A stretch of 53,184 nucleotides of DNA, counting the filler, from Jimgerdemannia flammicorona (taxonomy: Eukaryota): assembly GCA_003990765.1 (NCBI GenBank). It is 3 parts of 3 records of this genome, joined end to end, with 100 filler letters (N's around TTAATTAATTAA, not from the genome) between each part and the next. Parts side by side here need not be neighbours in the genome. Positions count along the whole stretch, not along the records: positions 17,767 to 35,427 come from RBNJ01002459.1; 2 more parts are not named here. One strand, written 5' to 3'. The notes under the pieces were generated by a model that saw only the letters and a program-made list of their open reading frames with translations, was not told where the DNA came from and made no database searches. The position numbers and the translations under genes are program-made. Shown piece by piece: positions 4,638 to 49,012 of this stretch. Each line of letters begins with the position of its first letter. Within the stretch, counting starts at the first letter, position 1.

Positions 4638-4693
4638 AAAAAATGTTGGTTATACTGTTCATGATAAAAATACAGTTGGTTCTCAATCAATCC

Positions 4694-6699: not shown

Positions 6700-6780
6700 G
6701 ATACTAGTAGCTTTTCTCCAGAAACTGTGTCGAAAGTGTTGCCAAAGGGTTGTGTAACCTGAATATTACCGGAGAAAGAT

Positions 6781-12090: not shown

Positions 12091-12104
12091 GGACCAACCT
12101 ACGC

Positions 12105-17666: not shown

Positions 17667-17766
17667 NNNNNNNNNNNNNNNNNNNNNNNNNNNNNNNNNN
17701 NNNNNNNNNNTTAATTAATTAANNNNNNNNNNNNNNNNNNNNNNNNNNNNNNNNNNNNNNNNNNNN
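17667..17766. other. Artificial assembly spacer (N44-TTAATTAATTAA-N44)
   Basis: Identical 100-bp structure at 35428-35527; the 12-mer is a palindromic all-frame stop linker. Confidence 0.97.
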
Positions 17767-17946: not shown

Positions 17947-20900
17947 ATCCGGAAGAACTTGTATAACGTCCATATGATGTTGTCAAAAGTTCTCAACATG
18001 TTGTATATCTCGGTGTCGAGCATCAAATTCCTGCTCCGCCTCGATTATGTCACAGCATTCCAAAAGAAGATGAAGGCGCTCAGGTTCTCAGTGCTGTCGG
18101 CCTAGGACCCTGCGCTCCCACGCAACAAGAATGCCATGGAGGCCGTGAAGACACGGGTACTCCAATCATTCCATGCTTAGGTCCGGCAGTTGACAGATGA
18201 AGCCACTGCAAAGAGGCCCAAAGTGCAGACCTTCTACCGAGCTTGGGCCACAGAACTTGGCCTCACTCTCCCTCCCCTGCCTCTCTGTCAGCCAGCCCTG
18301 CTTCAAAGGTAGGTGGTACTGTAGCCATGACAGGTGATATGGCGATGGATTTGGAAGCTGAAGCTTCTACCTCAGGTGCTTCCCATGTTGTTGGTGCTAA
18401 TGCACCCAGCCCACAATGAGAGTCGGGTTCCTCAATGCACATGGACTACCCCAGGACAAGTTCGATGTGCTCAGTCAGTTGATTGGTCCTGCCCTCAACA
18501 TTCTTTTTATATGTGAAATGTGGCACATTCTGCTGCATCCCTCTCTGCTCATTCACATGTCCTCTCCTCTGGCGTTGTACAGGATCATGGGTCACCAGAA
18601 CGGTAATCTTGTGGTCCTTGTGTCAAACCATTTTGCTTCTCTTATTTCTGAGTCCTCCGCTGACCCCTTCCATATCTAGCTCATGTTCCAGGGCCTGACT
18701 TTGGTTGGGGTTTATGCCCCACCCTCTCTTCCCATTGATGGCTTTCGTGATCTTGTGTCTGGCCCATTCATGGGTAAGACCCTCCTGATTGGTGACATTA
18801 ATACCCACTTCGGTGCTCACCTTGGTGATGTCAACTCTGGCCCTCGTGACTGGATGGATGTCATTGACACTTCCTTGATGATGTGATCATTGAACCACCT
18901 GATCCCAGTGGCTGGATCCACACACGTTGATCACATGTTCGCCACCATGTCCCTCCACATGTCCCTCACCTGCTCCACCCCCCCTGTCGCTACTGACCAC
19001 CCCTCCCTCCTCACTATCTCCTTTCCCTTCTCCCCCTTGCCGGTTGCTGCCTTGGCTGGCATCCGTCATTACTCTGCGAGATATCTAACCAACCTGGTTG
19101 TCCAAGCTCAACTTCGGGAATCAGCTGATATCATTTGCGATACGGTTGTCAGATCCATCTACTCTGTCCAAGATCACATCGCTGGCTTTCACTCTGTGGA
19201 AGATCGCCAACAGTTCGTGGATTCTCTGGATGCCCTTTTGACCTCTGGTCTACAGTCAGTTTGTGAGAACATTCTTGGCTCGTATGACGTAAGAGAAATT
19301 AGGGCCACACTGCTCCCCCAGTGGGACCTCCTTCACAGTACATCTTTAGTCTCTGATGCTATTCGTGGTTTCAAGCAAGTGTACTGCTCCACCCCCCTTA
19401 CTCCCCTCCAATCCCACTCCCCTAATGTCTCGGTGTTCGATGACATGGTTGCTCACATTACCACTATCTTTGGCCAGCCGAACATCTCCCTCCGCCTCAA
19501 TGACTCTGAGGATGTCTTCCCCCTCATTGTGGGTACTCTTGGACTACAGTCTTAGTTTGACCAACCTGCGGTTTGGAGGGCTATCTGTAGCTACCCCCTC
19601 TCCATGGCCTGTAGCGCTGACTCCTTACATGTCTGGATCCTTCAGGTGATGGCAGGTGAGAAGGACGCTCCCTGTAGCCTGTCGAAAGCCTTGTCCTTTT
19701 TCTTCCAGATGTGCATGGTTTGGGGGCTCACTCCCCGCCGCTGGAACTCTGCCATCATCACCCTGGTTCCTAAGAAGGAGGAATCATATACGATTGATGG
19801 ATTTCGCCCTATCGCTCTGACTGAAATGTTTTCTAGACTCTTCGAGCAGTGTTTGAAAGGTTATGTCAAGAGCTGAAGTGGCCTGACAGAAATGTTACGC
19901 TGCCAAGGTGGCTTCCGAACCTGCTTCTCGTCCCTCTCTCATGTCTTGTTATCACATGAGATGTGAGCTAAGGGATGGAGCTGCCATGTCTTTTTTTACC
20001 TCTGGCAGGTATATGATCGAGTCCCCCTCAGGCTTATTCTTTCCTGGCTTGAGGCAAGAGGTGCTGATGCAGCCCTCCTTAGCATTATCCGAAGCTTATT
20101 CAACCACTGTTCTTATCAGGTGGTTGTTAACGGCCTCGTCACCCCTTAGGTCCCCACTGAGCGTTACCTCTTCCAGGGCTCTCTGCTCTCCCCTTGGCTT
20201 TTTGATATCTTTATCGACCCTCTTGCCTCCTTCTTTGATGAATAATTCGAGGAGTATAACTTCCCCCTCGGGCTCTTCTTTGCAGACGACATCACCCTCA
20301 CCCCCTGCACTGCCACGGAAGGGCAAAGGATGATTGACTTTTGTAAAAAATGGCTTCTAGAGAACGGTATAGAGCTCAACCCCAAGAAGTGCAGTTACGT
20401 TGGCCCGGCTGACTGTATCATGCGGATTGAGGCCCGCGACCCCCCTCTTATGTGTACCTGGGTGTGCTGTATACTAACAAAGGGTTTGACTTTGTCAGCC
20501 TTATGTTATAGAATGCAGTGTAGGCAGACCAAACTCTTGGGTTCTGCCATGCCTGTGGTCCTCTCTGGTCACCAATGGTCAAGCTGGCCATCCTTCGTAC
20601 ATTCATCAGGCCCCAGCTGGAATATGGCCTTCCCCTTCTACAAGTTTCCTACCTGGCAACTATCATGGAGCTTCAGGTGTTGAAGCATCCCAAGCAGGTC
20701 TTTGATGATGCTGTCACTTAGGTGGTTGGATTTTCTAGCCATCCCTTGCTTGGTAGTTCGATTCTCGGCCTCTCTTCCTTCCTTCGTCATATATCTGACC
20801 TCTGCTGCATGTTCCAAGCCCACCTGAATTGGTGTAGCAAGTCGGGCAACAACCCCATCAGCCTCCTTAGCGAGCACTTTGTCACGCATCCCCCAGGTTC

Positions 20901-21860
20901 TATCATTGACAAGTTCCGGCGTTAGACCTCTTGGCTTGACTTCCTCGACTAGTACTGGGACCTTCATCCCCAGGTCCACAAGACTCGCTCGCTCTGCTCC
21001 TTCCTTCAGTCCTTCCTTCGGGACCAGCTGCTACAGGAATGGGCCTCCTCCTCTCAGGCTCTCATTCAGTATATCACCCCCAAAGGCCGCTTGCGGTCGC
21101 GGAGCACTGACCATGTCCTCTCCTTCCCCCCCTGGCTTGTATGTTCTGCCCTTGCCTGGCATTATGGCTACTTTGGCCAACCCCGCCCCTGCCCCTGTGG
21201 AGATAAGTTTCATCATGGCCATCTCCTCAGATGCGGTCTTCTTGATGGTTCCCATTCTACTTTCTGAGGTTCTTCTGATCGTGATGAACAACTCGATTGG
21301 TTTTCCAATGACAAATGGCAGGAGGAGCTTCATGCCTACCATCTTCATGCTCTTCACAAGACAGCCTATCATGCTATAGACACTATGTGTAATTCTGGTG
21401 GCCACCTCACGGTCGGGTTCTACCTGACCGAGATTACGAAGATGCTTGGGTGATCGAGCAATCGCACATTTTCTTTACTTCTTTCTTTCCCCTCATTTGC
21501 CTTGGTTGGTTCCCCTGTTATTGAGAATGCATTGAGTTATTCATCTCATGTCAGTCATTTGGTGTTTAGTTGTCGATACAGTTCATGTAGCAGGTGCCGG
21601 GTGAATGTGTATTATATCTTAGCCTTTCTTTTCTTTGCTTCTTGCATTTATTATTTTTACGGCCATGACAAAATGGTTTTATCCAGCCCGTCCATAGGGT
21701 GGTCACCTCTCTGGCCTTTGATTTTGTACTTCTTAGCTAGTTGTTTACTTCACTGGCCTTGTTTTGCTTTTCTTATCTTAGGAGTCTTTATTTTTGTTGC
21801 TCCGATATACCTTATCTTCTCTACAATGAATAAATTCTTACTTGAAGCCTAACCCTAGCC
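17947..21860 (+). mobile_element. Non-LTR retrotransposon family T, copy T1 (5' part missing), ending in CCTAACCCTAGCC
   Basis: Collinear with 23094-27010. APE (GFLNAHGL, CE-WH, IGDIN, TDH), RT (FRPIAL, FQGSLLSP, FADD), C-terminal CPCG-x4-GH-x3-C. T-rich 3' UTR with AATAAA at 21829 and no poly(A). Confidence 0.9.
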
Positions 21861-23567: not shown

Positions 23568-26500
23568 GAGTTGGGTTCCTCAATGCACACAGACTACCCC
23601 AGGACAAGTTCGATGTACTCAGTCAGTTGATTGGTCCTGCCCTCAACATTCTTTTCGTATGTGAAACATGGCACATTCCGCTGCATCTCTCTCCGCTCAT
23701 TCACATGTCCTCTCCTCCGGTATCATACAGGATCATGGGTTACCAGAATGGTGGTCTTATGGTCCTTGTGTCAAACCATTTTGCCCCCCTCATTTTCGGG
23801 TCCTCTGCCGACCCCTTCCATATCCGACTCATGTTCCAGGGCCTGGCTTTGGTCAGGGTTTACGCCCCCCCCTCTCTTCCTATTGGTGGCTTTCGTGATC
23901 TTGTGTCTGGCCCATTCATGGGTAAGACCCTCTTGATTGATGATATCAATACCTGCTTTGGTGCTCACCTTGGTGACATCAACTCTGGCCCTCGTGACTG
24001 GATGGATGTTATTGATACTTTCTTAATGACATGGTCATTGAACCACCTGACCCTGGTGGCTGGATCTACGCACATTGACCACGCATTTGCCACCACATCT
24101 CTCCACATATCCCTCATCTACTCCACCCCCCCTGTTGCTACCGACCACCTCTCCCTCCTCACTGTCTCCTTCCCCTTCTCCCCCTCACCGGTTACTGCCT
24201 TGGCTGGCATTTATCATTACTCTGCGAGATATCTAACCGACCCGGTTGTCCAAGCTCACCTCCGGGAATCAGCCAATATCGTTTGCGATATAGTTGTCAG
24301 GTCCATCTACTCTGTCCGGGATCACATAACTGGCTTTCGCTCTGTGGAAGATTGCCAACAGTTCGTGGATTCCCTGGACGTCCTTTTGACCTCTGGTCTA
24401 TAGTCAGTTTGTGAGGACATTCTTGACTCATATGATGCAAGAGAAATCAGGGCTGTGCCGCTCCCCCAGCGGGACCTCCTTCGCAGTGCATCTTCAGTCT
24501 CTGATACTATTCGTGGTTTCAAGTGAGTGTACCACTCCACCCCCCTTGCTTCTCTCCAATTCCGCTCCCCCAATGTCTTGGTGTTCGACGATGTGGTTGC
24601 TCACTTCACCACCATCTTCAGCCAACCGAACGTCTCCCTCCACCTCAATGACTCTGAGGATGTCTTCCCTCTCAGCATGGGTGCTCTTGGACTGCAGTCT
24701 TGGTTTGATCAACCTACGGTTTGGAGGACTATCCACAGCTACCCCCTCTCTAAGGCCTGTGGCGCTGACTCCTTGCATGTCCGAATCCTTCGGATAATGG
24801 CAGGCGAGAAGGATGCTCCCTGTAGCCTGTCGAAAGCCTTGTCCTTTTTCTTCCAGATGTGCCTGGTTTGGGGGCTCACTCCCCACTGCTGGAACTCTGC
24901 CATCATCACCCTGGTTCCTTAGAGGGAGGAATCACGTACGATTGATGGATTTCGCCCTATTGCTCTGACTGAAATGTTTCATAGACTCTTCGAGCAGTGT
25001 TTGGAAGGTTACGTCAAGAGCCAAAGTGGCCTGACAGAAATGTCGCACTGCCAAGATGGCTTCCGAACCTGCTTCTCATCCCTCTCTCATGTCTTGTTAT
25101 CGCACGAGACGTGGGCTAAGGGATGGGGCTGCCATGTCTTTCTTGACCTCTGGCAGGCATACAATCGAGTCCCCCTCAAGCTTATTCTTTCCCGGCTTGA
25201 GGTGAGAGATACTGATATAGCCCTCCTTAGCATTATCTGAAGCTTATTCAACCACTGTTCTTATCAAGTGGTTGTAACGGCCTCATCACCCCTTCGGTCC
25301 CCACTGAGCATGACCTCTTCCAGGGCTCTCTCCTCTCTCCTTGGCTCTTTGACGTCTTTATTGACCCTCTTGCCTCCTCCTTTGATGAATAATTCAAGGA
25401 GTACGACTTCCCCCTCAGGCTCTTCTTTGCAGACAACATCGCTCTCACCCCCCACACTGCCACGGAAGGGCAAAGGATGATCAACTTTTGTGAAGAATGG
25501 CTTCTGGAGAATGGTATGGAGCTCAACCCCAAGAAGTGTGGTTACGTTGGCCTGGCTGACTATACCATGCAGATTGGGGGAGAACCCTGCCCACAACCCC
25601 CCTCTTACGTATACCTGGGTGTGCTGTATACTAACAAAGAGTTTGACTTTGTTAGCCTTGTATTACAGAATGCAGCAAAGGTGGAATGAACTCTTGGATT
25701 CTGCCATACCCGTGGTCCTCTCTGGTCGCCAATGGTCAAGCTGGCCATCCTACATATGTTCATCAGGCCTCAGCTGGAATATGGCCTCTCCCTTCTACGA
25801 GCTTCCTGCCCAGCAACTACCACAGGGCTTCAGGTGTTGAAGCGTCCCGAGCAGGTCTTTGATGATACTGTTGCTTGGTTGGTTGGATTTTCCAGCTGAC
25901 CCTTGCTTGGCAGTTCGATTCTCAGCCTCCCCTCCTTTCTTCGTTGTACGTTCAACCTCTGCTACATATTCCAAGCCTATCTGGATTGGTGTAGCAAGTC
26001 TGGCAACAACCCCATCGGTCCCCTTAGCAAGCGCTTTATCACGCATCCCCCAGGTTCTATCATTGACAAGTTCCGGCATTGGATCTCTTGGCTTGACTTC
26101 CTCGACTGGTACTAGGACCTTCGTCCCCAGGTCCACAAGACTTGCTCGCTCCGCTCCTTCCTACAATCCTTTCTTTGGGATCAGTTGCTGCAGGAATGGG
26201 CCTCCTCCTCACAGGCTCTCATTTGGTATATCACCCCCAAAGGCCACTTGCGGTCGCGGGGCGCCAACTGCATCCTTTCCTTCCCCCCCTGGCTTATGCA
26301 TTCTGCCCTTGCCTGGCACTATGGCTACTTTGGCCAACCCCACCCCTGCCCCTGTGGAGATAAGTTTCATCGTGGCCATCTCCTCAGGTGTGGTCTTCTT
26401 GATGGTTCATATTCTGCATTCCGAGGTACTTCTGATCGTGATGAATAGCTCAATTGGTTTACCAGTGATGAATGGCAGAAAGAACTTCACGCCTACTCCC

Positions 26501-26600
26501 TTCACACTCTTCACAAGATAGCCTACCATGCTATTGATACCATGTGTAATTCTGGTAGCCACCTTGTGGTCAGGTTCTGCTTGGCCAAGATTACGAAGAT
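23564..26600 (+). pseudogene. Family T ORF2 (APE endonuclease - reverse transcriptase - Cys/His motif)
   Basis: MRVGFLNAH...CETWH; WNSAIITLVP; FLDL-QAY; FQGSLLSPWLF; CPCGDKFHRGHLLRC. 3' end is approximate. Confidence 0.88.
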
Positions 26601-27009
26601 GCTTGGGTGATCAAGCAATCATACATTTTCTTTACTTCTTTCTCTCCCCTCATTTGCCTTGGTTGGTTCTCTCCATTGTTGAGGGCATATTGAGTTATTC
26701 ATCTCATATTAGTCATTTGGTGTTTAGTTGACGATTCAGTTCATATAGTTGGTACCAGGTGAATGTGTATCATATCTTAGCCTTCCCTTTTCTCTGCTTT
26801 TTTTGCATTCTATTATCTTTACAGCCATGAAAAAATGGTTTTTATCCAGCCTATCCATAGGGTGGTCACCTCTCTGGCCTTTGTTTTGTTCTTCTTAGCT
26901 AGTTGTTACTTCACTGGCCTCGTTTTGCTTTTCTCATCTTAGGAGTCTTTGCCTTTTGTTGCTCCGATGTACCCTATCTTCTCTACAATGAATAAATCCT
27001 TTCTTGAAG

Positions 27010-27046
27010 CCTAGCCCTAACCTAACCCTAACCCTAACCCTAACCC
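27010..27046 (+). repeat. Interstitial telomeric repeat tract (CCCTAA)n
   Basis: CCTAG CCCTAA CCTAA CCCTAA CCCTAA CCCTAA CCC directly after the T2 3' UTR. A shorter tract lies at 21848-21860. Confidence 0.93.
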
Positions 27047-30000
27047 ATTGGCTGATAATTTAAAATAAATCCTCACTTTTAAGCTAAAAAATAAACAACT
27101 ACCAGACTGCTATATAGACTATTATGTCATACATAGTATTTGTCTATACCATCTACTATTAATTACTTATTTTGGTTGTCAGCCTCATTCTGTGAATCAT
27201 TAGTATTAAACAATAGATACTCTGCAAAGAACTACATTATTGAGTTAATAGCTGGATCACTCTCTAGTTTGAGGAATAACATTATAAGAATTAATCACTA
27301 AAAATGCTAAATAAACCACTATGCTAAATAGACTACTGTATAGACCACCACTGCAACCTAATTTTGAAAAAAGATAAATAAACTACTGTACAGACTGCCA
27401 CTGCTATCCAATTTTTGAAGATATTATTTATCTGTATCATCTGCTATTAATTGCTTATTCTGATTATTAGTCTTATTTCTGTGAACCATCAGTATTGAAC
27501 AATAGATACTCTACAAAGAACTATATCATTGAGTTAATAACTGGGTCACTCCTTAGTTTAAGAAATAACATTATAAGAATTAATTACTAAAATATCTTCC
27601 AATATATGAATGGACTACTATAGAGAATTAAAAGATGTTATATATGAACCACTTAAGTAAAGAATACCATTATATGTCTTTTGATAATATACAAATATCT
27701 CCTGACATATAAATAGACCACTATAGAGAATTAAAAGATATTATATACAAACTGCTTGAGTGAAGAATACTATCTGATATATGAATAGACTACTATAGAG
27801 AATTAAAAGACATTATATACAAATCTCTCAAGATAATATATAAATGGAATGAACTGCTCTAGAGAACTAAAGATACTATTACTCTGACTTTTGAAGATAT
27901 AAACATTACCTATTGCAAATAAACTAGTATCCTATTGAAGACATTATATATAAACCCCTTAAGTAAAGAATGCCATCATATAACTTTTGATGATATACAA
28001 ATACCTCATAATATACAAATATCTTATAATATATAAATATCTTCTATCATTCAAATGGACTGCCATAGAGAATTAAAAGACATCATATATAAACTACCTA
28101 AGTGAAGAATACTACCTGATCTTAGAAGATACTGTCACTTACTAGATACTAATACCCAATTTTTGTAGACACCATTACCTGACTTTTGTCCAAACTACTG
28201 CCTGAATTAAAACTTTTAGGATCTCAAAAAATATTCTGATAATCACTTAGATATAATATTATAAACAAGTCTATATAGGGAGAACAAACATATAAATATT
28301 ATAATATAAGAATTTAAATAAGTATTTTTGTATTAAAAATAATCTATTCAGGAGAAAGATATGATTTATAGTATGAAATAGAAATAAGAATTAGGAGAAT
28401 GAATATTTGATTGTGATACCTAAATCTGATTTCCTGATTTATTATAGTATAGAAATTATCTTTACTATAGATACTATATCTAAAATATTATCAGTGAAAC
28501 TCTTGTTACTTTTACAAAATTTAGATAGGATTTCACATAAGATTATATCTGAGATATAGATGGAAATTTTACATGAAAAGACTTATTACTTAGCTGCATA
28601 TTTAGTAGTGCAAACTTATATAAATAATCCAGTATCTTAGAGTAAATAAACCTCAGATTGAACCAGTTTAATTCAAAGGTCTTCTTTATATACCCTTTCT
28701 CTCCATTTTAAAATACTATTAATTTACTAAGTTTCACATCTACAATGTTATACTATATAATCCTCTCTCTGAGCTATATATAGTATATTTGTAATCTTTG
28801 AATAAATCAGTATAGTGTTTTCTATATTAATATTATAATAGTAGTATTGTATCTATCTCTTGATATTCTTTAAATTAATAATAAGAATATTCTCAAATTT
28901 ATAAAGTAGCTTCTTTAGTTTCTTATTGAGTAGAAATTTATTTTTAATAAATAGCTATACTTATCTATGATTTTCTTCTCCTTATAGTCTAATTTTATAA
29001 TCTTAATACTAATATAGACTCTTCTTTTTATAGATTTAAATATTCTTTATATTTTATCTAATATTTTGACTTTTAGAATCTTAGATTATAATACTAAAAA
29101 AATAAGTATCTGTATTATTAAATTCTTTTTGTTAACTGTAAAAAAAAATTTCAAAAATCTAATTTCTAACAATAATGAGAATTTTTCCAGTATAGTTTAA
29201 ATTAATAACTCATATTTTAATTGAGATTTCACTCTTAGCTAAACTACTTTTTGTTTTGAGAATTCTGATAATATTATTTAGAATAATTATTTTTAGATTA
29301 GTTATAAGTAAAGTTATTATTTAAAGTTTAAAAACTATCTCTATAACCATAATAATATCTAGTTTAAATATATTTTTTTATTTAAATTCTAATAAAAGTA
29401 TATCTAGATATATATATCCTCCAAATATTGATCTTATTTTTTCTTTATTATTACTATTTTCTAAGAGAGCTAAATACTCATCTTCTTAGTCTTTCTTTTT
29501 TTACCTCTTCTGTTTTGTTTTTTATTTTTACTTTTCTGAGATAATTTATATCTTTTTCAAGAATCTTTTTAGCAAATTAATAGTATTTTTTATAAATATT
29601 AATAATATATAGTAGTTATAAATATATATATTATATCTAAAATCTATATTGACTAATTTCTTGAAAAAAGTAGTATTGAGTAATCTTTTAATATTAATCT
29701 TTTTTAATGATCTAACTAATCATTTTCTTCTTCTTATTTATTAATTTCATTCTCTATTATAGAAAGTTTCTTTATTAATATTGATTGAAATTTACATCTT
29801 TTAAATATTTATATCAATTATTGTCTTGGTTTTGTAAAGCTACTGATTACTAATAAAGATATCATATTTGGTAATACTGATTATAATTATATCTACTGAA
29901 ATAGTTACTCTTCTGAACTTAATGAAAATATCTCAGATCTTTCTCAAAAATATAACTCTAATATTATCTACTATAACAAATATCAGTTTTGTGGAATTTT

Positions 30001-30332
30001 TGATCTTTCAACCTAGGTAGTCTACAGTCTTCTTGCTAAGGAGCCATTCTTCAGCTTTTATATCAATAATGGTTCAATGATCCTGTCTTCTATTTGGCAA
30101 GTTGCATACAACTGCTGACTTGAATTAACCAACCAGAGTGTGGAATACACTCAGGTAGACAGAGACAAGTAGAGCAGATGCATTTCCTAATCAGAGAGGG
30201 GAGTACACTGAGACAGACAGAGATACAGAGGGTAGGGGTGCGTTTCCCAACCAGCGAGGGGGATACACTCAGACTAACAGAGAGAAAGAGTGGGCAGGCG
30301 CGTTTCCCTACAACTTTATTATAGAGTAAAGA
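27047..30332. repeat. Very AT-rich decayed repeat block of unclear class, with internal direct repeats
   Basis: ~165-bp direct repeat at ~27141-27303 and ~27429-27592. GACTACTATAGAGAATTAAAAGA-like unit about 5 times (27613-28080). Three ~60-bp tandem units at 30131-30308. No ORFs, strong TpA excess. Confidence 0.6.
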
Positions 30333-30715
30333 ACAACCGGTTGAGCCTGATTATTATTCTATTATAGGCATGTTCCTTGGAAAGAGTGCTTCTTCGGAAT
30401 TCTAAATTAAATAAACAATCTTTGCAGGCTTTACGAGGGAAGACCTTGTTCTTGTGGCATGCGTCTTGTCGTTGTGCGATGAGCATGGGAATAAGGGGTG
30501 GCGTAATCGCAACTGTTAAAGATCCGATTGGGACGGAATTGAACCGAAATGGATCGAACGGAGTATTAGCGTAACCTTAGACAGGGCAACGATTGGAGTG
30601 CACATGACAATCGGGTTTGACCCGAAATGGATGAACCCGGCCAATCGGTTTTGCATCTCCGAATGTGTCAAACGCAAGCGCGAATTCTTGACTTCAATAC
30701 CCACCAACTCACAAC

Positions 30716-33700
30716 ATGCAAATATCTTTATCAAAGGATACCAACAGCGACGGCTCTAAAGAAACCAGGGTCCTCGTTGAGGTTGCCATCGCTGATGATG
30801 AGCAAGCAGAATTCCGTTACAGCCATTTCTTTGACCTTCAACATATTGAAGCTGGTCGATCCATCGCCGTCGAAGTCTTCGACAAGGAGCCCAAGTCTGC
30901 GGATCTTAGAAAATATGGAAAGTTGTTATTTAGAGCCCTCTTCTCGAAAGATAATGCCAGTCCTGCTCGGCAATTACTTGATGAAATATTGCTGCCTCGC
31001 CCACCCGGTCGAATTTTACTTAAGCTCAACCATGACACTGACCTTGACATCATCCCCTGGGAGTACACGTGGGGCAACAATGCATATTTGATCAGTCACT
31101 GTATATTTGTACGCTTGCACAAACTAAAGGGCCCTCAGCAATCGAAACTTTCGCACAATCCCAAGGTCTCTCAAATATCGTATAATCCGAAGTTCCCTAA
31201 GACATCGCATAATCCGAAGGGTATCCAGCCATCGCACAATCTGAAGATCTCTCAGCCGAAGGGGCCTCAGACATCGCGCAATCCGGAAGAGACTGAGCCA
31301 TTGCAACGTCCGACGGGGAGCCAGGCAACGCACAATCCGAAGGTCCCTCAGCCATCGCACAGGCCGAATGGGCCGCAGACATCGTGCAATCCGAAGGGAT
31401 CTCTACCTTCGCGTAATCTGAAGGGGTCGATGCCATCGTACAGTCCGAAGGGGCCTCAGCCATCGCACAATCCGAGGGGGTTTGAGCCGTCGCACAGTCC
31501 GAAGGGGCCTCAGCCATCGCGCAACCCAAAGGGGTCTGAGACATCGCACAGTCCTCAGCCATTGCGTAATCCGAAGGGGTCTCAGCAATCGCGCAATCTG
31601 AAGGGGCCTCAGCCATCGAAACTTCCGCAGCTTCCGCTCCGCATTGTCACCGTTGTACCAAACCCCATACTCCCGCCAAACGATCCCAACGTGAATAGTT
31701 TTCCGGATCTGCATTTGACCGATCAATTTCAGACATTATTCGATGAGTATAACAAAAACAATCAAAGAGTGTTACTGCACCGTGTGTTCCCGCCGACCGT
31801 CGAAAGAATGTACTCTTCACTTATGATGAAGCCCGAAATGGCCACAGTGCTTCATTTCATGGGACACTGCGGCTCGCAGAGCGATCGTACAAGGGCCCTC
31901 ATCTTCGAAGATAACGACACGGGTAATCTCGACTTTGTTGACACACTGCGCCTCGGCAACATGGTGAAGAACTTGCGATTGGCATTTCTATCTGCCTGCG
32001 ATACACGTGTTGTCGCCCGAGTCCTGGCGGAACAAGAAATTCCATATACTATCGGTTCATACTGTCGCCTGCCAGACGACCTCGCTCGCAAGTTCGAGTA
32101 TAAATTCTACCAGTTCCTTGCCAGCGGCAAAACGGTGGAAATAGCGATGTTGGAAGCGCGTGTGTTTATGCAACACTCGAATATCATTCGACAACGCGAC
32201 TACTTCCCCGGTGCTATGGTGCTTTACTCATCCACGTTTTCAGAAGAGGATGGTGTGTTTAAGTACGAGGATGGCAAGCCCACGGTCGAACCCCACATGC
32301 CCGTCAACAATCTCGAAGTGATCTCCATCACACCAATTTTTTGCGGACGGAAGAACGAAATAATTGAGTTGGCTCGCGTTTTGAGGAGCATGGCGAAGCA
32401 AGGGGCACAGACTTGTCGCATATACACTATTGAGGGCATTGTCGGCCAGGGGAAAACAGCGTTGGCCGAGAAGGCGGCCAGATGGACGGCGCATCTTTTC
32501 CCTGGTGGAATTTTTGTTTGGCGGTTCGATCCTTCGCGCGCAGTATCGGTTATGGACTATTTGCAGCACCTGAGTCAGGTCATATTCCAGGAAGCCCTGA
32601 CTGGTGATTTGGACATGCTGGAACGGGACCTTATCAAGAAATTGGAGTCTCGTCCGACGAGTTTGCTTATCCTCGATCAAGTCGATATATTGAAACATGC
32701 ACAAGTCATGGGCAATGGCGAGGCTGTATCCTTGGTGAACTGGCTTCGGAAGGTGGTATCGGTACCTGATCTCGCAGTAAGAATTCTTGCAACGTCGAAT
32801 CAACGTTTGAACTGGACAGCACAGGAGGAAGTGATGCATCTCAATGGTTTAACTGATTTTGATATTGAGAGTGGCGTCGAGATGTTTATTCGAAATCTCG
32901 ACTCAGAAGTAAGGAGGAGGATGGAGAAGGAGGAAAATACAGCTCAGTTATTGCGCGACCTCATCAGGCTCCTAGACGGACATCCGCTGTCTCTGAAATC
33001 CCTTGCCCGAACGGTTTGCCTACCGCAACATTCTGATACGTCGCTTCAAGAACTCATCCAAGAACACTACAGTATAATGCTGGCGAATGACTCGGATTTG
33101 AGTACAAAACTCAGAAGTCATTTCCGATCAACGATCGAAACACTTCTACCTTTGGAGTGCCAATTTATATTTATGTGTTCTCTCTTCATCGGACCAATCA
33201 CAGAAGAAGTGCTAGAATTCGTCCGTCATTTTGTTGAGTGCGTCGATGGATCCAAAAATGGGATCGATTCTAGAGCGACGATCACGAAGAACCTTCAACA
33301 ACTTTACCGTCGCGGGTTATTGTCCAATCGAAATGAGGAATACAGTATGCAATTCGCACTTAGGGAAGGCGCCAGGCTCTGTAACTCCCTGTGGAAATTC
33401 CGCCTGCACTTGCCGATCCCAGGTTTGATCAATGACACATTTGTAATTGGTGTGGTCGGACCATCTCAACGTGGTGAGTAATATACTGGAGCAAGATCAT
33501 TCATATGTCTCCTATCCACTTGTTCTAAATCTATTGTCCATCATAACAGTGAATTCCATGGTGTTGGGATGGCAACTCCGAAGAATTCAAGCCAATGCTC
33601 ATAGGGTACTGAAGACCAGGGGTTTTGGCATACACTACTACTCCATCGGAAATGAAGGACTTCGAATTTTCAAAATTGATGGCATGGCCAGCGACAGTAT

Positions 33701-35427
33701 CGACGGTGACAGTTTCGACGATGACAGTATCGACGGTGACAGTATCGACGGTGACAGTATCGTCGATGACAGTATCGTCGATGACAGTATCGACGATGAC
33801 AGTATCGACGGTGACAGTATTGACGATGACAGTATCGACGATGACAGCCTAGCCAAAGTCGTACCACGGGAAGATGCATTATATAGTCGGTTGGTGGTGT
33901 TCATATACAACATCTCTGAATGCAGCCATGACAGCCTCGTTCGATTTTCCAAAGAGCAAATTATACCACTTGTTCAAGAAAAACGAATGGCTTTTATTCT
34001 TTGCTTGAACCATACCGATAACGAGTTTGTGGAACGATCAAAGGCTGCTTCAGTTCTGACTATGAAAGCCGCAGAAATCCTTCAAACAAGCCTGAAGGAG
34101 TCGCACTGGATAATTAGAACAGAAGCTTCTCGCAGTAGGTTTAAAATTTCGTACCACTGTCATTGCATATATTAAATACTTTGTATTGTTAATTTTACTA
34201 ATACAAATGTTATCCAATATATATATTCTGACAGAGTTTATGCAACCCAACGGGGACTCAGGTGAAAAAATTTCTGTATTAAAATAAATCAATGTGATTG
34301 GTCATACTTTCTGGCTGACCTAGCTGCTTTCAATCCACCTACAGCGATGAATGAAAATTTTGACAACAAAACAACGGAGATGATTCACCGTAAACGTAAC
34401 GACAATGTCCACATGGAGGGAGATTTCGTTGGACGCACAAAAGATCTCAATGAGTTAAATGAACTTCTCAAAGGCCCTAAGCGTTTTATTACCATCAAAG
34501 GATTTGGTGGGATTGGAAAAACGGCATTGGCACTTCAAGCTTTCAACAGCTACAACTCTGGTAGCGCTCTTGCGCTATCTCTTACTGGAGTACCAAAATC
34601 AAATCAAGTGATCCTGAAGATTGCAGAGTTTTCTGCTGTAGACACCAAAGGTTTGGAAGATCAAGAACAACAGCCCAAAGTGCTTGAGGCATTGAAAGGG
34701 GAAGAGACAATTTTACTCTATCTTGACAACATGGAAGACATCAAACTTGCAATTTGTGGAAAAAACTCTGAGATGAAAAAGGAGGCAAAGTCATTGTTTA
34801 CCTTTTTCAAAATATTACCAAAAAATGTCAAAATTCTTGCTACATCACGAATCGCACTAGATTGGCCTAATGAACAGTTTTTCGATGTAACTGGTTTGAC
34901 ACCACACGACGGCATGCAGGTCTTTCGTCAATGGATCCCCCAGCGCTTGCAAGCAGAGAATATAGACGATGAGAGCGGAATGGAGCTTAGTCGTGTAGTT
35001 GATGGTCATCCATTGTCTATTCGCCTTCTAGGAGGAATGTTTGACAATTGCAAGGAACCGATCCAACAATTCATCAACAAGGTTCATGAACGACTTCCTA
35101 CAGCTGTGAATGACGAATCCATTAATGAGCGACACGAATCGATAGACGCCTGCATCGACTACAGTTTTTGTAACTTGGACGATGAACTCAAGAAGTTTTT
35201 GTGTCTGTTGAATGGCTGGAACATTCCATTTACACCAAAACTCATCTTGCGCTCTTTTCAAGATGACCCTGTTGCTCTATCAGCATCGCCTATCTCAACC
35301 AATTTGCACAAACTTTGGCAAAGAAGCTGGCTAAACCGACGAAAATACGAGGTCGACCCAATGCTCGGTGACTGGCGCCCCAACATTATCTCGAATGAAA
35401 CCGAGTTTTATAGCCTGCATCCACGCC
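30716..35427 (+). CDS. NLR-like protein: CHAT protease - STAND/NB-ARC - degenerate Ras-like GTPase - second STAND/NB-ARC; 3' partial. Predicted exons 30716-33473, 33550-34134, 34235-34261, 34324->35427
   Basis: CHAT: IPWE, LHFMGH, FLSAC. STAND1: FCGR, GIVGQGKT, LLILDQVD, ILATS, GHPLSL. STAND2: FVGR, GFGGIGKT, LLYLDNMED, ILATSR, GHPLSI, YSLHP. Three phase-1 introns (GTGAGT..CAG, GTAGGT..CAG, GTGAAA..GCTGACCTAG) join all ORFs in frame. CpG-rich and free of stops, unlike the flanking TEs. Confidence 0.85.
31124..31635 (+). repeat. Coding 27-bp minisatellite, about 18 degenerate units of PKGPQPSHN, inside the CHAT region
   Basis: Consensus CCGAAGGGGCCTCAGCCATCGCACAAT visible in both DNA and protein. 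Confidence 0.95.
33693..33848 (+). repeat. Coding 15-bp minisatellite, 10 full units of DSID(G/D)
   Basis: GACAGTATCGACG(G/A)T x10 plus a partial unit. Confidence 0.97.
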
Positions 35428-35527
35428 NNNNNNNNNNNNNNNNNNNNNNNNNNNNNNNNNNNNNNNNNNNNTTAATTAATTAANNNNNNNNNNNNNNNNN
35501 NNNNNNNNNNNNNNNNNNNNNNNNNNN
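35428..35527. other. Artificial assembly spacer
   Basis: Same N44-TTAATTAATTAA-N44 structure as 17667-17766. Confidence 0.97.
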
Positions 35528-36195
35528 TTTTTTTTTTTTTTTTTTTATAGTCACTTAGACTTCCACTTTATTACCAAACTATCTATGACATAATACTAAT
35601 ACAAATATGCTCCTTGCCCAATTCTACTTAGAATATCTCTCTCTCTCTTCTCACTATTCTTCCAAAATACTGTCATTCTCTCTACCACCCCAATTCTCCC
35701 CCCACTCTTCCTACAGATTGTCTCTACTAATCACCACTGATATCCCCCACCTATATCTCCATTCTCCCACCACCCATTCAACATATCTGTCATCAGCCAC
35801 TTCTATCTAATCACTCTCACCCCCAATGTCAAATAATAGCCCTCCTCAAATATATAGAGCCAATGTCCTGCCAGTCTAATCCAAATTGCTAACATCCATC
35901 CTAATGTCAGCCACTTATCTCCTAACCCTCCCCCACCAGTCTCCTCCAGAGGCCACCCCACCTCTCTCTTGCTGCTAGCTCTGATGAGTATACCCCTAAC
36001 TGTATCTCAACTGTTTTTCAAAAGTCCTCTATCACCTCATACTCCCCCAGCCAATGTTCAGACATCTGTATCACTTCTCCCTTCTGTCTGACATTTAGGC
36101 ACTTCTTACACTCCTGAGCACCCCCTTCTACCAAGTGGTCTGTCCAGTAGTTCAATATAACATTATGCTGTAAAACTCTTCACCACACTACTTTG
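35528..36195 (-). mobile_element. Family L-related 3' fragment with poly(A) tail, old
   Basis: Poly(T) followed by ATAGTCACTTAGACTTCCACTTTATTACC, similar to window positions 1-32; homology continues into the ORF2 C-terminus. Confidence 0.8.
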
Positions 36196-42420: not shown

Positions 42421-45400
42421 CTCTCTCTGTTATAAATTATATTATATAAACTTTTAACAATACTTTTGATATAGTTTTTAGAGCAAAGATAATAATAACA
42501 TAGTAACCAACAAGAGATTAGAGGAGTATGCTAGATAGAGTAGCTCTAGTACATTTGACTAGCAGTATATAGAGAGGAGTTATGACTTGGAGGGAAGTAT
42601 GAGGAACTTGCTAGCTGGAGGACATGGAAGAGAAGGTAGCAGTACTAGAAGGTAGAGGACTGAAAGAGTGAGCTTTGCTAATAAGACCAAGGCTGAGCAC
42701 TCATTGACAGTCTTGGAGACCTGGTTGCAGAGTGATAAGGAGAAGAAGAGAGATATAGGAGCTAATAGAGAGACTCCTGGGAGTAGTGGTGGTAGGGCTG
42801 GGAGAGTTGTGGCTTAGAGGAGTGAGACTGCTAATAGAGGGAGAATTGCTAATTTGAAAAAAAATCCAGATATAACAGCTGATGGTAGGGCTGGACAGGA
42901 GCAAGACATGAGGCCTAGAGATCTAGCTGATAATATAATGGGCCTGATGGCAGTACTGTTACTCAAGAAATCAGTGTCCAAATTTACTATTATATTATAC
43001 TTCTAGGGTCTAATAGTCATAACAAGGATGGTTCTAAGGTTGCTGACCTAGGAGGTGAAAGGGGCTGCCTTGGTGAAGTTCTTGAAGGGTCTAGAGAGGA
43101 TTGAGATAGGGTTTGAGAAGGAGAAGTTAATGCTGGAGATATTGAAGAAAGAGGTAGTTGAAGAAAGAGGTAGTGGTAGCAACATTCAGGTTACATGATC
43201 CTTTGACAATACTTTCGATACAGTTTCTGGAGAAAAGCTACTAGTATTATGGTGACCAATGAGCATCCTGAGGTGCAGACTGGGCAGGGTGGCCCTGGAG
43301 CATTTGAATGGCAGCAAGTGGGGAGAGGCCCTGGCTTGAGGGGAAGTATGAGGGGCCTGCTGATAGGAGGCCGTGGTGGAGGAGAGGGCAGAGCTGGAGG
43401 TCAAGGGTCTGGCAGGGTGAGCTTTGCAGAGAAGGTGAAGGGGAGTCGGCAGGGAGCTGGGCTGGAGAGCTGACTGAGAGGGGGGAAGGTACCAGTGAAG
43501 ACTACCAGGCAGCAACCTCTTAGGGGTACCTCTCTGGAGGGCCATAGGGGTGGAGCTAGGGGGGTAGTGGCTGGGGTGGAGACTGCTGATGGGGGTGTGA
43601 TGGGTGATCTGGAAAAAAATCTAGATGGGACTACTGATGGTGAGCCAAGCAGTGGGAAGAGCATGAGGCCCGGAGATCTGGTGGATGGTGTAATGGGACT
43701 GGCAGTGGCTCCATTACTCAAGAAGTCAATCTCAGTATTTGCAGTCACACTGTGCTTCCAGGGCTTAGCAGTGATGGCAAAAATGGTGTTGGGGCTTATC
43801 GCTAAGCAGGTGGCAGGAGTGGCTTCAGTGAAGTTTCTGAAGGGACTAGAGGGGGTGGAGGTGGGTTTTGAGGAGGTTGAACTGCTGGAGGAAGCACTGA
43901 AGGTTGGGCTGGTGGTTGGGGAGGTGTGTGTTCCAATGGCAAGGTATTTGAAATGGGATCCGAGGGTGGTCCAACTGCTGGTAAAAGGAGTACCCATGGT
44001 GACAGTGATGGAGATGAGGAAGAGAGTGGAGGATGTCATGGCAGAGTACGGAGAGGTGGTGGATATCGGATTCAGGGTCTGGGAAGGGACCATGCTCAGG
44101 ACTGGGGATGTGGATGTGAGGATTCGGCTGGCTGGGAAAGAGGCTACTGGGAAGGCGAGGGACTGGCCTTTGGTGATGGTTTGGGGAGCATTTCTGTGCA
44201 AGGTGACATGGGTGAAAGGAAGTGAAGAAGAGGAGGAAGATTTATTGGAAGCGCTGGAAGAACTGGATGGGGCTGTGGAGTGGCAAGCTAAGGCCTGGAA
44301 GAATTTTGAGGAGTTGATACACCTGGAGGTGGTGGATGGAAAGAGGATTTGAGTGGACAAGGTGCAGTAGGAAAGGACTCAGGGGCAGAAGAGGCAGAAG
44401 GATCTGCTGGCTAAACTGGGGAGTGGACTACAGAAGGATGAGAGTATGAAGCTGGGTGCAGAAGGGGCTGGAGCGAGTGTCTGGGTGGGTGAGAGGAGTG
44501 GGAATGATAGGGCAAAGACAGGGAAGGCAAAAGAGGTGAAGACTAGTGACCCATATGCTGATGGCACCTTGGAGGTTTGGGATGAAGTCTGAGAGAACTC
44601 CCCCACCCCTTCCCCTCTTATCAGGTATGGCCCAGCTTTCAGGAACAAGTCTGGGGAGGACATGACAATGCTGGGGACCCAGCAGGTGAAATTCAGTGTT
44701 CCGGAGATAATGAATGGGGACCGAGTAGTGGCGGCTGGGGAGGAGGAACTGGTGGATGTCTCGGAGGTGTGGGATGAGGATGCAAGTGCCAGAGCTGACA
44801 CCATGATGCTGGATAGAGGGAGGCCAGCGACCCCTGGTGGGAAGGAGGTGGGGAACCTACTTTGGATGTGCTGGATGATGAATAACCTAGCAGCAGAAGA
44901 GCTGGGGGAGGTGGACTTGTATGGCATGGGTGATAAGTACTGGACAAGAATTTTGCAGGGGGAAGGAGTGGCAATGGCACTGAAGGCAGAAATTCTCATG
45001 GTGTATCTGGAGGAGAAAGGGTATGAGGTAGACAAGGAGAGGAAGGCAGAGTTGGTGGTCATTGCTGGGGAGAAGGCTGAGTACTATTGGAACAGGCATC
45101 ATAGGTTGCAGCTTTGGCAGGAGGCTTGTATTGAGTACAGAGAGGAGTTTGAGGAGAAGGCAGATGAGGAGATGAATGAGCTGTTGGCTGGATTGGAGGC
45201 TCAGAGGGCTGAAGAGGAGGTGATGGCTGAATATAATCTGGACAGGGCACAGGAGGAGATGGGCATGGAGCAGTAGGGATTGATTGAGAACAAACCGTAT
45301 TTCATTATGAACAGTATAACCAATATTTTTCTTTGAATGTAAATGGGCTAAGGGGTGCAGTTAGATGCAGGAACATTTTTATTTGATTGAAGGGATTAGA

Positions 45401-48400
45401 GGCCAATCTCTTCCTCTTGCAGGATGTCAGGTGCGAGGATGATTCTGATAGGATGGAATGGACTAAGGAATGGAGTGGCATGGCAATTTGGAACAGCAAG
45501 GTCAGGATTCTGGTTCGGAAAGGCAGAGGGGAGATAAGGGATATAAGGAGACTGGTCTAGGGTGAGTGGATTTGTGCAGGTTGGGAGTCAGTCACAGTTG
45601 GCTCCTGTTACTGCTCTGCTGTGCAGGGGGAGCATGTGGATTGGGTGAAAGGGCTCCTGGAGAGTGGAATCCTTGCTGAAGCTGGATTGGATATGCTTGG
45701 AGGAGATTTCAATATGGTTCAGGATATACAGCTGAATAGAACTGATAGAGGACGGGGTGCTGAGAGCAGGAGTGGGGGGCTGGCGATGTGGGAGGAGGTC
45801 GAAAGGCTAGGAGTACTGGTGGATGCTAGTAGAGAGTACTGGGGGGACAAGAGGGTATATACATATTGGGCTGGAGGGCTGGAGACAAGGATTGACTGGA
45901 TTCTGATGGCTGACTGTTGGGGCCGCAATATTTGGAAGGTGCTAGAGGTAAAATGGTGTCCATGGTCAGATCACTGGGGCCTTTTGGGACAGGGGTGTTT
46001 TGGGGGAAGTGGCGATGGGCCTGGACATTGGCACCTAAATTCCTCCTTGTTGGATGATGAGTCCTGGTGGGAGGAGTGGGTGAAAGACATTCAGCTGAAG
46101 GTGGAGAATTGGCAGCAGGAAGGGGCCACAATTGGGGTTCAGTAGATGAGGATGAAAGAGATGGCCAGGTTGTACTGGAGCAAGGTGGACAGAGTGGCTG
46201 GAAAGCAGCGAAGGCAGAGAGTGCATTGGGCTTCTACTAGATTGGCTAGGCTCCTGGAGGAGTAGGTGAGACTGGCAGCAGTGGAGGGAGAAGAGGATTG
46301 GAGAATAACGAGGGTGAAGATGGAGGTTGAGGAACTACAACAAGTGCTGCAGGAAGAGGAAGAGTCAAGGATGCAAGGCCTGGTGGCACAGCTTCGTTGG
46401 CAGGGGCTGGAGGAAGGGGAGAGGCCTTCTAAGTTTCTCATGAGGACAGTTTGAGCGAGAAGGGTACAGCAGCAGTAGGAAGGGGTACTTGACTCAGATG
46501 GTATACTAGTGTATGGTGTACAGGATATCCTTGGAACACTGAAGGCATGATGGAGTAGATTGTGGAGTAAGGAGGAGGGTAGGGCAGATGCTACAGCTAT
46601 TGATCAAACATTAGAAGATTGGCACCCACTATAAGCTGAGAGATTAGGTGACCTGGTGATGCCTGTAAAGGAGGACAAGATCCACCAGGTTCTTGCTGCG
46701 ACAGCCTCGGGTATGGCACCTGGGGAGGATGGCCTACCCTGGGACTTCTGGAAGTGAATGGTTGGAGTCCTGGATATGTTGGGGGAGTTGACAGCACTGT
46801 GTGACTTTATATTGCAGTCAGGGAGATGGGTGGGGGAACAGGATCTTGGGCTGGTGATACTGCTTTATAAGAACAAAGGAAGGTGAGAGGATTGGAAGAA
46901 CTGGCAGCTGATAATGTTGTTAGACATGGACAGAAAGTTGGTGACTAAGGTAGTGGTTGCAAGGCTACAGAAGGTAGCCCAGCAAATTGTAGGTATTGAG
47001 CAGAGGGGCTTCATAGGGGGTTGGCTTATTAGAGATGGCACAGCCTGGATACATAGAGTTATTGAAGGTGCTTGAGCCTGTGGACTGGATGGACATCTTG
47101 TCTTCTTGGACCAGGAGAAGGCCTATGACCAGGTGCAGTGAGTCTGGCTGGTGAAAGTATTAGATAGAATTGGGGTTCCAGTCCCATTTCGGTTGGTGAT
47201 GGTCAGCCTACTGGAAAGGAGTAGGGCTGTGCTCATGTGTAATGGGCATAGAGGGGTAGCATTCCCTCTGGGTAGGGGAGTGCCCCAGGGGGACCCACTG
47301 TCCCCCATTTTGTATGCTCTTTCTTTGAAACCTCTAATAGACAGGATTCAGCAGAGGATAGTGGGGCTCTCTGTCTATGGAGTTGGCTGGAAAGTTGGAG
47401 TCTTTGCAGATGATATGGTAGTTGGTTTGGGAGTGACTGCTGATGTCGAGGAGCTCAAGAAGACAGTGGAGTGGTATGAGGAGAACTCTGGGGCAAAGCT
47501 GAATTGGCATAAGTGCGAAACAATAGTGCTGGGCAATGGCCTGGTGGGTGGAGAGGTTATTGGAACAATTGTCCCTACCAGAGAGGCAGTGAGGTACTTG
47601 GGTATCTATTTGTCAGTCTATGGGTCTATTCTGCCCAGGCTGTGGTGGGAGCAGAGGATTGGAATTTGAGAGGAGAACCTGTGGAGTTGGGGGGGAAGAC
47701 ACTTCTCTCTAGCAGGAAGGATCTTGATTTTGAATGTATACTGGCTGCCAAAGCTATGATATTTGGCTTATCATCTAGACTTCCCAGTCTGGGTGGTGAA
47801 GAGATTGATAAAGGTGGCCAAGAGATGGATTTGGGCTAGCAGACAGAGTCAGATTGGTTGGGAGACTTTGTCCCTACTGGTGGCGAGAGGTGGTCTTGGG
47901 CTGGTGGACTTCTCCAAACGACTACACTGCTTGAGGGCATGGTGGCTTAAGAGGGTGGTGGAGTTGTATAGAGGGGGCTAGGTTCCCCTGCTGCAGAAGG
48001 TCTGGGAGAGGCAGTCATCACCAAGAGGCTCGACTGGTGATCTTCTTTCATTAGTTGGGCTTTGGAACACTGTACAACTGAGATATAAAGACTTCTGGTG
48101 GGGGATAGCTGAGGGGGTACACCATATTGGTATTCGCTGGTAAGGGGATGAGGGGGAGAGAGCTTGGGGCCCGACGATGTGGAGATGGAATGGCATTCTT
48201 CTGGGAGGTGTGCCTTTACTTGAGTTCAACATTGGTGATGGAATCGAATACCAAAGGGGACCAGGCCAGGATCTGTAGCCTAGTGGTTGGCAAGAAGTTA
48301 GAATTGGTGAGGAGTGGGACTGGCATGGGGTTTGGACCTGGAGTGCTACAGTGAAAAATTGGATGCCACCGAAGTACTAGGTAGTCTGGTGGCATATGCT

Positions 48401-49012
48401 GAGGAGGAATATGATGCTTAACTTCCGCTCAGGACACCTTGTTGTAGGGGGCTGCTTTGACTGTGAGGAGTGCCATAATGTAGGGTGGAAAGGGGGATTT
48501 GTACAGATGCCAGAACATTGGCTAGGGGAGTGTGAGGTGTTGAGAGACTTTTGGCAGACCATTGGGGACTGCCTGGGGGTGAGGCATAGGGGAGATGATG
48601 TACAGGAGAGGTGGGAGGACCTGAGGGATCAATTGGTAGAAGGGGTAGGGGAGGAGTAGATTACTTTAGGCTGGGCATTGGCTATTTGGGTTGGGCTGGC
48701 CAGTCACTGGCTATTTGTATTTGAGGAGAAGAGGTGACAGAACTTGGGAAGCTGGTTATCATAGTGGCAGTGCCTTATGGAGGATACCTTGACAGGCTGG
48801 TAGCTTGGTTGGAGGCTGCAGGGGGGTCAGAGGCGCTGCTTGGTAGTAAAAATCTATGGTCAGAGTGGTGGGAGAGTTGGAGTTGTTAGTGAGAGGATAG
48901 TCTTTATATGTGAAGAGGTGGGGAGGGGCCCCCCGATGGGGATCAGATAGTGAGTGGTGATATTGTATACTTATTCTTAGACTGGTAATAAAGACGGAGT
49001 CCAAGGGACTAT

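Follow-up and report, generated by a model that had tools for sequence, protein, structure and literature searches.

The window analyzed here is a stretch of 53,184 nucleotides from Jimgerdemannia flammicorona (assembly GCA_003990765.1), and its + strand carries one spliced gene at 30716 to 35427, the 3′ end of which is lost at a contig joint. The gene lies wholly inside a single contig (17767-35427; RBNJ01002459.1). The joint behind it (35428 to 35527) has the form N44-TTAATTAATTAA-N44, whose 12-mer gives stop codons in every frame, so that the 3′ end of the gene is missing; an identical joint, N44-TTAATTAATTAA-N44, lies at 17667-17766. Thus, the window is a chain of separate contigs, and genes flanking a joint need not be genomic neighbors. 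A preliminary description of this locus had claimed that a CHAT protease, a STAND NTPase, a small domain, and a second STAND NTPase are encoded in this order by one spliced gene, and the order was supported by the reading frames, by Pfam, and by related sequences. I conclude that this is a real and probably intact gene whose compound architecture is unusual and is found again in relatives. An assembly chimera was ruled out, since the gene stays within one contig and its relatives share the domain order. With a probability of roughly 70%, the gene encodes a single compound protein resembling NOD-like receptors (NLRs) of the STAND class, consisting of a CHAT effector, a first NOD module (NOD1), the small domain (here called domain X), a second NOD module (NOD2), and, by analogy with relatives, Sel1 and ankyrin repeats beyond the gap.

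Reading Frames and Exons

Three open frames on the + strand make up the gene, at 30692-33481 (929 codons from stop to stop), 33447-34175 (242 codons), and 34266-35483 (405 codons, running into the N letters). Exon 1 (30716 to 33473; 919 codons plus one nucleotide) encodes the CHAT domain, NOD1, and the first strand (FVIGV) of domain X. Exon 2 (33550 to 34134) encodes domain X, an alpha/beta domain belonging to no Pfam family, and the last exon in the window (34345 to 35427) encodes a linker and the NB-ARC module NOD2 until it is cut by the contig end. The start codon ATG at 30716 agrees with the N-termini of the relatives (MR[VI]SL...). Depending on the splice variant, the protein up to the gap has 1475, 1482, or 1491 amino acid residues. 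The coding sequence of about 4.4 kb is free of stop codons and frameshifts. The G+C content of the gene is about 0.40-0.53. Ahead of it, in 1-kb windows spanning 27001 to 30000 and ending several hundred bases short of the start, the value is 0.18-0.28. The closest relatives, which come from the sources lgn and jgi, are proteins called at the level of open reading frames (ORFs). Those of exon 1 (P0001-P0011) match with E values from 5e-179 to 6e-88. Taken together, the frames, the profile matches, and the relatives (E down to 5e-179) are far beyond chance.

The CHAT Domain and the Two NOD Modules

The caspase-like core of the CHAT domain (Pfam PF12770) is encoded at 31754 to 32188 on the + strand (amino acids 347-491). 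The Pfam match reaches 46.2 bits (cut-off 24; E = 5.5e-12) and covers only profile positions 119-272; the relative P0001 matches the profile whole, from position 2 to position 271. His384 (31865-31867, in HFMGH) and Cys428 (31997-31999, in LSAC) are what I take, from the caspase and CHAT literature, to be the catalytic pair. In an alignment of 12 sequences, both positions show full conservation or conservation of at least 90%; the relative P0007 has a Ser in place of Cys428.

NOD1 is an NB-ARC-like STAND NTPase encoded at 32339 to 33430 (+ strand), with a Walker A motif (32435-32458, GQGKT), a Walker B Asp (32675-32677, in LLILD), a GHPLS motif, and a winged-helix end. Its residues 542-765 match Pfam AAA_22 with 27.9 bits, just above the cut-off of 27. 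NOD2 has its Walker A motif at 34500-34523 (GIGKT) and its Walker B Asp at 34725-34727 (in LLYLD), both on the + strand, and it likewise has a GHPLS motif and a winged helix; it matches Pfam NB-ARC with 39.7 bits against a cut-off of 23.5 (E = 4.4e-10). Hence, the dyad of His and Cys and the two Walker A/B sets are indeed intact, as had been claimed, the dyad columns being conserved across the 12 sequences, and profile matches for both CHAT and NB-ARC were obtained with Pfam (5.5e-12 and 4.4e-10). The two modules share 27% identity over 231 residues (E = 3e-12), and common to both are a GR..EL lead-in, G.GKTALA, an LL.LD Walker B, ILATS, and GHPLS. Judging from this resemblance, NOD1 and NOD2 are paralogues.

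Two minisatellites lie in frame within the coding sequence. One has a 27-nt unit (31151 to 31618, + strand; about 18 diverged copies translating to approximately PKGPQPSHN each) and was resolved by TRF into two arrays with 65-72% matches. It lies inside the CHAT domain, between the N-terminal part and the caspase-like core, where it splits the Pfam match, and it is absent from P0001-P0007. The other has a 15-nt unit (33693 to 33847, + strand; 10.3 copies, 92% matches by TRF), encodes an Asp/Ser/Ile-rich loop of domain X, and is absent from the relatives. These arrays are the starting point of one alternative, namely that the locus is a non-functional copy, decaying amid many transposons and open by chance, whose CHAT domain and domain X were disrupted by the minisatellite expansions. 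The split CHAT match, the absence of both arrays from relatives, and the surrounding retroelement remnants and AT-rich DNA (G+C 0.18-0.28 from 27001 to 30000) fit such decay. It is nevertheless improbable, as some 4.4 kb of coding sequence has no stop codon or frameshift, both arrays keep the frame, every catalytic and Walker residue is retained, and the splice sites are intact.

The Junctions between the Exons

Intron 1 (33474 to 33549, + strand) is a phase-1 intron of 76 nt with the form GTGAGT..AG. Among all in-frame GT..AG pairs, it gives the top score (310) against the relatives P0189 and P0150, and its G+C content is 0.355 as against 0.49 and 0.45 in the flanking exons. Both P0189 and P0150 have a continuous frame that leads from the winged-helix end of NOD1 straight into domain X. 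With tblastn, the halves of P0189 align at 33329-33478 and 33555-33677, and those of P0150 at 33122-33478 and 33852-34124. In addition, the frame in the window and those of P0005, P0006, and P0007 all close with G-[E/K] and then a stop codon or Leu (4/4), because they read through a donor of the form G|GT[G/A]AGT.

Intron 2 extends on the + strand from 34135 either to 34323 (189 nt) or to 34344 (210 nt), with phase 1 and the donor GTAGGT. The two forms score 511 and 514 against P0148 and P0150. In 27 of 29 ORFs that pass the end of domain X but do not continue into NOD2, the fifth residue past a conserved Thr is G, S, R, or C. Since these are the four residues that NGT can encode, the ORFs appear to read through an N|GT-RAG donor, and K, R, or E comes next after the split codon in 22 of the 27. 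The window's own read-through at this junction is S-R-F (A|GT AGG TTT). The relative P0148 runs from domain X into the start of the NB-ARC module: up to TEVPS, right after which the two diverge, it shares 59% identity with the X-only ORF P0152, and it also shares 59% identity with residues 6-99 of P0016, a protein of the order NB-ARC-Sel1-ankyrin. From the reading of its last residues, P0150 seems to be continuous through both junctions.

The preliminary description had drawn three phase-1 GT-AG introns, including a 27-nt micro-exon. All the boundaries are GT-AG and in phase 1, and intron 1 is the best pair, as said above; the part that stays unproven is the candidate micro-exon (34235 to 34261, + strand, with boundaries at 34234 and 34262/34323). 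It is in frame and flanked by AG and GT, and the frame is still kept if it is left out. Its G+C content, 0.52 as against 0.30 for the whole of 34135-34323, counts in its favor. Against P0148, the micro-exon variant scores 341, and a single intron scores 350 with the acceptor at 34323 or 353 with the acceptor at 34344; the 210-nt form aligns to P0148 without a gap in the linker. Thus, a single intron 2 would fit P0148 slightly better than the micro-exon does, the differences being small.

The same region might be read as the border of two adjacent genes forming a linked pair, one for CHAT-NOD1-X that ends at the stop codon at 34173-34175 and one for NOD2 (with Sel1 and ankyrin repeats) that begins at the ATG at 34347. 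The stop codon, the ATG, and an AATAAA are suitably placed for this, and the ORF-level NOD2 relatives P0014, P0015, and P0016 begin near that ATG. I regard two genes as improbable: the spacer from the stop codon to the ATG is just 171 nt, the end of domain X is a donor conserved in 27 of 29 relatives, the X ORFs have no conserved C-terminal tail beyond it, and P0148 and P0150 are continuous across the boundary. The claim of a single gene is thus supported by the continuous relatives P0189, P0150, and P0148 together with the conserved donors (4/4 and 27/29). This comparison speaks strongly for a single gene in which each of the two domain boundaries has a conserved phase-1 intron.

Records of a sequencing run, run X1, were aligned to 30500-35427. 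In one contig of this run, 19 of the 30 letters directly before 33554 agree with the end of exon 1, without the intron; this is a weak hint of intron 1 removal, as the 19/30 was read by eye and the RNA nature of the run is a guess. The eight "joints" of the run were not counted as splicing, having non-splice ends or sides of 44 letters or fewer (under 30 in five of the eight). The alignment comprised 192 records, 130 of them at 90-95% likeness and 21 at 99% or above. With the gene divided into 30 bins, the records cover 26; no depth was seen at 31160-31324 and 31490-31654 (the 27-nt array), 33800-33964 (the end of the 15-nt array and the start of the X core), and 34130-34294 (the region of the second intron). 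It seems that the run represents a family of many copies of the gene rather than this exact copy.

Relatives and the Missing C-Terminus

What might follow after the gap? The last exon has its three closest relatives in P0014, P0015, and P0016 (E from 4e-114 to 2e-98, 45-56% identity), and in each of them the NB-ARC module and winged helix are followed by a Sel1 repeat region and then by ankyrin repeats. By tblastn, the ankyrin part of P0014 is absent anywhere in the window. By analogy, a Sel1/ankyrin repeat sensor most likely lies beyond the gap after 35427, and the full protein would then have about 2,100 residues. A non-repeat domain had been supposed at the place where the sensor should be; that was a misreading of a truncated gene, for P0014, P0015, and P0016 go on into Sel1 and ankyrin repeats.

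A simpler arrangement was found on the side of exon 1. P0001 (by a Pfam run) and P0002 (by a precomputed Pfam list and a reading of its sequence) have CHAT, NOD1, and ankyrin repeats in a single ORF. Six relatives reach the end of NOD1; two of these continue into ankyrin repeats, three stop at the intron 1 donor before domain X, and P0004 ends otherwise. Among annotated proteins of 1610-4595 residues, there were three matches, all of them combining CHAT, an NB-ARC or AAA-type NTPase, and TPR, without ankyrin families in their precomputed Pfam lists. For two of the three, the source gives the name TPR protein; P0235 is bacterial. A metagenome scan for related loci confirmed one of 161 pattern matches, a contig of 1501 nt with the CHAT part only.

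Domain X

Domain X consists of about 150 residues of alpha/beta type, and Pfam gives nothing credible for exon 2. In a library of 1.8 billion proteins, 34 of the 100 matches listed are true relatives, none longer than 284 residues. The other 66 match the Asp/Ser-rich insert of domain X or, in the case of P0223, are a repeat protein judged unrelated, and they were dismissed as low-complexity or chance matches; among these, the sequences of P0170, P0195, P0200, and P0223 were read.

The small domain had been called a pseudo-GTPase. Is this name justified? None of 22 members of the domain X family matches a Pfam GTPase family. At E ≤ 0.001, the members match only AAA_16, ATPase_2, and NB-ARC, with one member each, which are the same three families as for P0148 alone; the other 17 Pfam families listed are weaker, single-member matches. 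A sequence search of the PDB with domain X gave best E values of 0.27 to 1.1; GPN-loop GTPase 1 (E = 0.77) aligns over the strand-helix-strand and N-K-x-D region. As for the G1 P-loop GxxxxGK[S/T], there is no GK[S/T] after the FVIGV strand in the window, and the site varies in relatives; as for the G4 motif [N/T]KxD, the window has N-H-T-D, in a column that is not conserved in a 22-row alignment.

Structure models were also compared. The AlphaFold2 model of exon 2 has a mean pLDDT of 71.1, with 84-93 in the core and less than 56 in the minisatellite loop, and that of P0150 has a mean of 60.6, with 78-94 in the X core. Domain X was thus modeled without a properly supported strand 1, which is disordered in P0150 and absent from the exon 2 model. 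A Foldseek comparison of these two models yielded no match at E ≤ 0.001. A comparison with 48,161 chains by VIA-align gave, for the Rag-like GTPase LokiRagM, a Z score of 7.0 (root-mean-square deviation 2.9, 95 residues aligned), below the caution line of 8. Other G domains followed, namely the ROC domain of LRRK1 (6.3), LokiRagO (6.1), Gtr (5.8), Rag (5.7), G-alpha proteins (5.7, 5.2, and 5.1), 9edr_G (5.4), and Hbs1l (5.2). Unrelated folds tie with them, including IF3-C (7.1), chitinases, and AAA+ proteins, all below 8.

Thus, the term pseudo-GTPase is a lead only: no Pfam or PDB sequence match backs it, G1 and G4 are not conserved, and Z scores of at most 7.0 are tied with unrelated folds. 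Domain X represents a new family of alpha/beta type that leans toward GTPases. On the same evidence, there is a somewhat less than even chance that domain X does not derive from a GTPase at all and is an unrelated alpha/beta domain of adaptor or effector type, the N-terminal domain of a second NLR unit, its GTPase matches reflecting a shared three-layer arrangement. The Pfam, PDB, and Foldseek results, the tied Z scores, the lack of GK[ST] in the P-loop, and the variable N-x-x-D all fit this. On the other side, G domains recur among the full-domain matches (Z 5.1-7.0), GPN-loop GTPase 1 aligns over the region mentioned above, and the folded strand 1 is missing in both models, which lowers any match.

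The new family counts at least 34 cluster representatives, each known only as an exon-level ORF or a short fragment of at most 284 residues. Since the relatives of domain X and of the other exons are ORF-level calls, spliced genes of this kind are invisible to ORF-based catalogues.

Surroundings of the Gene

The upstream DNA consists of remnants of retroelements and AT-rich sequence, and the downstream side of the gene is not present. When the 34 other ORFs of at least 150 residues in the window were searched against Pfam, three matched RVT_1, one weakly matched Exo_endo_phos, one weakly matched collagen, and 29 had no match. No gasdermin-like gene, which would count as linked within about 10 kb, was seen among these 34 ORFs, the downstream side being missing.

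The retroelement-like stretches lie at 1-7000 (- strand), 11000-17000 (+ strand), and 43000-49000 (+ strand), with a G+C content of about 0.5 and a GC skew of +/-0.3 to 0.58. Their ORFs match RVT_1 (E = 1e-19, 5e-16, and 6e-10), and one weakly matches the endonuclease/exonuclease/phosphatase family. Between 18 and 27 kb, there are two degenerate copies of one long element (18887-19555 versus 24150-24900, and 20246-21379 versus 25481-26521), whose ORF translations are clearly alike by eye and match no Pfam family. About 400 nt upstream of the start codon, a 60-nt tandem repeat (30129-30308; three copies, 70% matches) likely lies in the promoter or 5′ region of the gene. Right after the contig joint, the stretch at 35560-36100 is very poor in G and rich in C and T, and the GC skew is -0.40 for 35001-36000.

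Possible Function and Mechanism

The domains and their motifs are encoded in one reading frame, and the arrangement recurs in relatives. By analogy, the gene product may be an NLR-type protease switch with an immune or cell-death function. In such a switch, the C-terminal repeats would hold the adjacent NOD2 off, and binding of a ligand would lead to nucleotide exchange and oligomerization via the NOD modules. Oligomerization would bring the CHAT domains together and activate them, and the protease would then cleave a downstream executioner, for example a gasdermin-like protein, leading to regulated cell death or non-self recognition. NLRs that bear a CHAT domain have been viewed as pyroptosis-like pathways in contracted form, with the caspase built into the receptor itself. 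I presume that the gene is expressed and spliced in this organism in the way drawn here, that its protease may be active on some substrate, and that its C-terminus would resemble those of the relatives.

The analogy is drawn from fungal CHAT proteases. According to the available parts of two reports, such proteases adjoin 19% of 1,884 fungal gasdermin genes, some of them resemble NLRs, and for one CHAT domain, cleavage of its gasdermin was demonstrated (PMC8851545; PMC10197012).

Several points weigh against the reading of the locus as one gene for a functional compound receptor. NOD1 stays below the gathering scores of NB-ARC (17.2 versus 23.5 bits) and NACHT (19.2 versus 26.7 bits). The C-terminal repeats are not within the window, as the gene ends at 35427. 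Function might suffer from the two in-frame minisatellites, one of which lies within the CHAT domain. A Pfam search of the 34 other ORFs of at least 150 residues, which small spliced genes could escape, showed no candidate substrate gene, whether gasdermin-like or other. The ATG at 34347 lies exactly where the homology to the NOD2 relatives begins, and it is preceded by the stop codon at 34173-34175 and an AATAAA at 34283-34288. Instead of spliced mRNAs, P0148, P0150, and P0189 could represent paralogues that have no introns.

If the locus is nevertheless one gene, how may it have arisen? The two NOD modules are paralogous and there are simpler single ORFs of the CHAT-NOD1-ankyrin type; thus, the gene looks like a CHAT-NOD1 executor fused to an X-NOD2-Sel1-ankyrin sensor. 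In effect, it looks like a single-chain version of an NLR pair. A bolder proposal, which I consider rather unlikely as a whole, is that of a natural single-chain NLR pair in which CHAT-NOD1 was fused to X-NOD2-Sel1-ankyrin via a new GTPase-derived, nucleotide-blind adaptor, as one of a set of paralogues in a eukaryotic lineage that is probably fungal and has been poorly annotated. If this were true, the NOD modules would have split roles, NOD2 being the regulated switch and NOD1 the oligomerization platform for the protease, and the gene would offer a compact model of sensor-helper NLR communication. Two intact NOD modules in one chain, split by an unclassified domain, make it testable how two nucleotide switches cooperate in one receptor. 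In plant biology, the same question of cooperation is raised by paired NLRs and by tandem-NB-ARC NLRs.

Comparison with Known Systems

The preliminary description had called the architecture undescribed, and this agrees with the searches made here. No description of a fungal or CHAT-linked double-NOD protein was found in the literature searched, and no annotated protein with the order CHAT-NOD-X-NOD was found in the protein searches; as these searches rely on exact shared words and on ORF-level calls, the absence is weak evidence. What seems new here is the combination of CHAT, two NOD modules, and domain X; fungal CHAT-NLRs and plant tandem NB-ARC NLRs were already known. The latter are exemplified by wheat WTN1 (bioRxiv 10.1101/2024.08.30.610185, as far as its accessible text goes).

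The nearest known systems are the fungal HET-Q2-like CHAT proteases and CHAT-NLRs, which, in the available parts of the reports (Clave et al. 2022, PMC8851545; PMC10197012), share with this gene an N-terminal CHAT domain and a NOD module, the ankyrin repeats being found in relatives. A proteolytic cell-death switch is expected in both. In contrast to what those parts of the reports describe, the gene here adds a second NOD module and domain X between NOD1 and the sensor, and no gasdermin neighbor was seen among the window's ORFs searched. A further difference is that its closest named sequence relatives are of bacterial type and not annotated fungal proteins, although the short GT-AG introns and the gene family suggest a fungal source. 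These are the bacterial CHAT-NB-ARC-TPR proteins, such as P0017 and P0235 (the latter from Ktedonospora formicarum according to NCBI), which share the pairing of CHAT with NB-ARC. NOD2 is 33% identical to P0017, and P0234 and P0235 share 28-29% identity with the exon 1 region. Unlike the gene here, the bacterial proteins have a single NOD module and TPR instead of Sel1 and ankyrin repeats, and they have neither domain X nor introns.

Wheat WTN1 has two NB-ARC modules per chain, as in the gene here. It belongs to another kingdom, however, and has other effector and sensor domains, without a protease or an intervening alpha/beta domain in the part of the preprint available (bioRxiv 10.1101/2024.08.30.610185). 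ROCO proteins such as LRRK1 and LRRK2 (repeats, ROC GTPase, COR, kinase) resemble the gene in placing a GTPase-like domain within a large, repeat-bearing signaling protein. They differ in that the match of the LRRK1 ROC domain to domain X is weak (Z 6.3), that domain X has no GTPase motifs, and that the gene has neither COR nor kinase.

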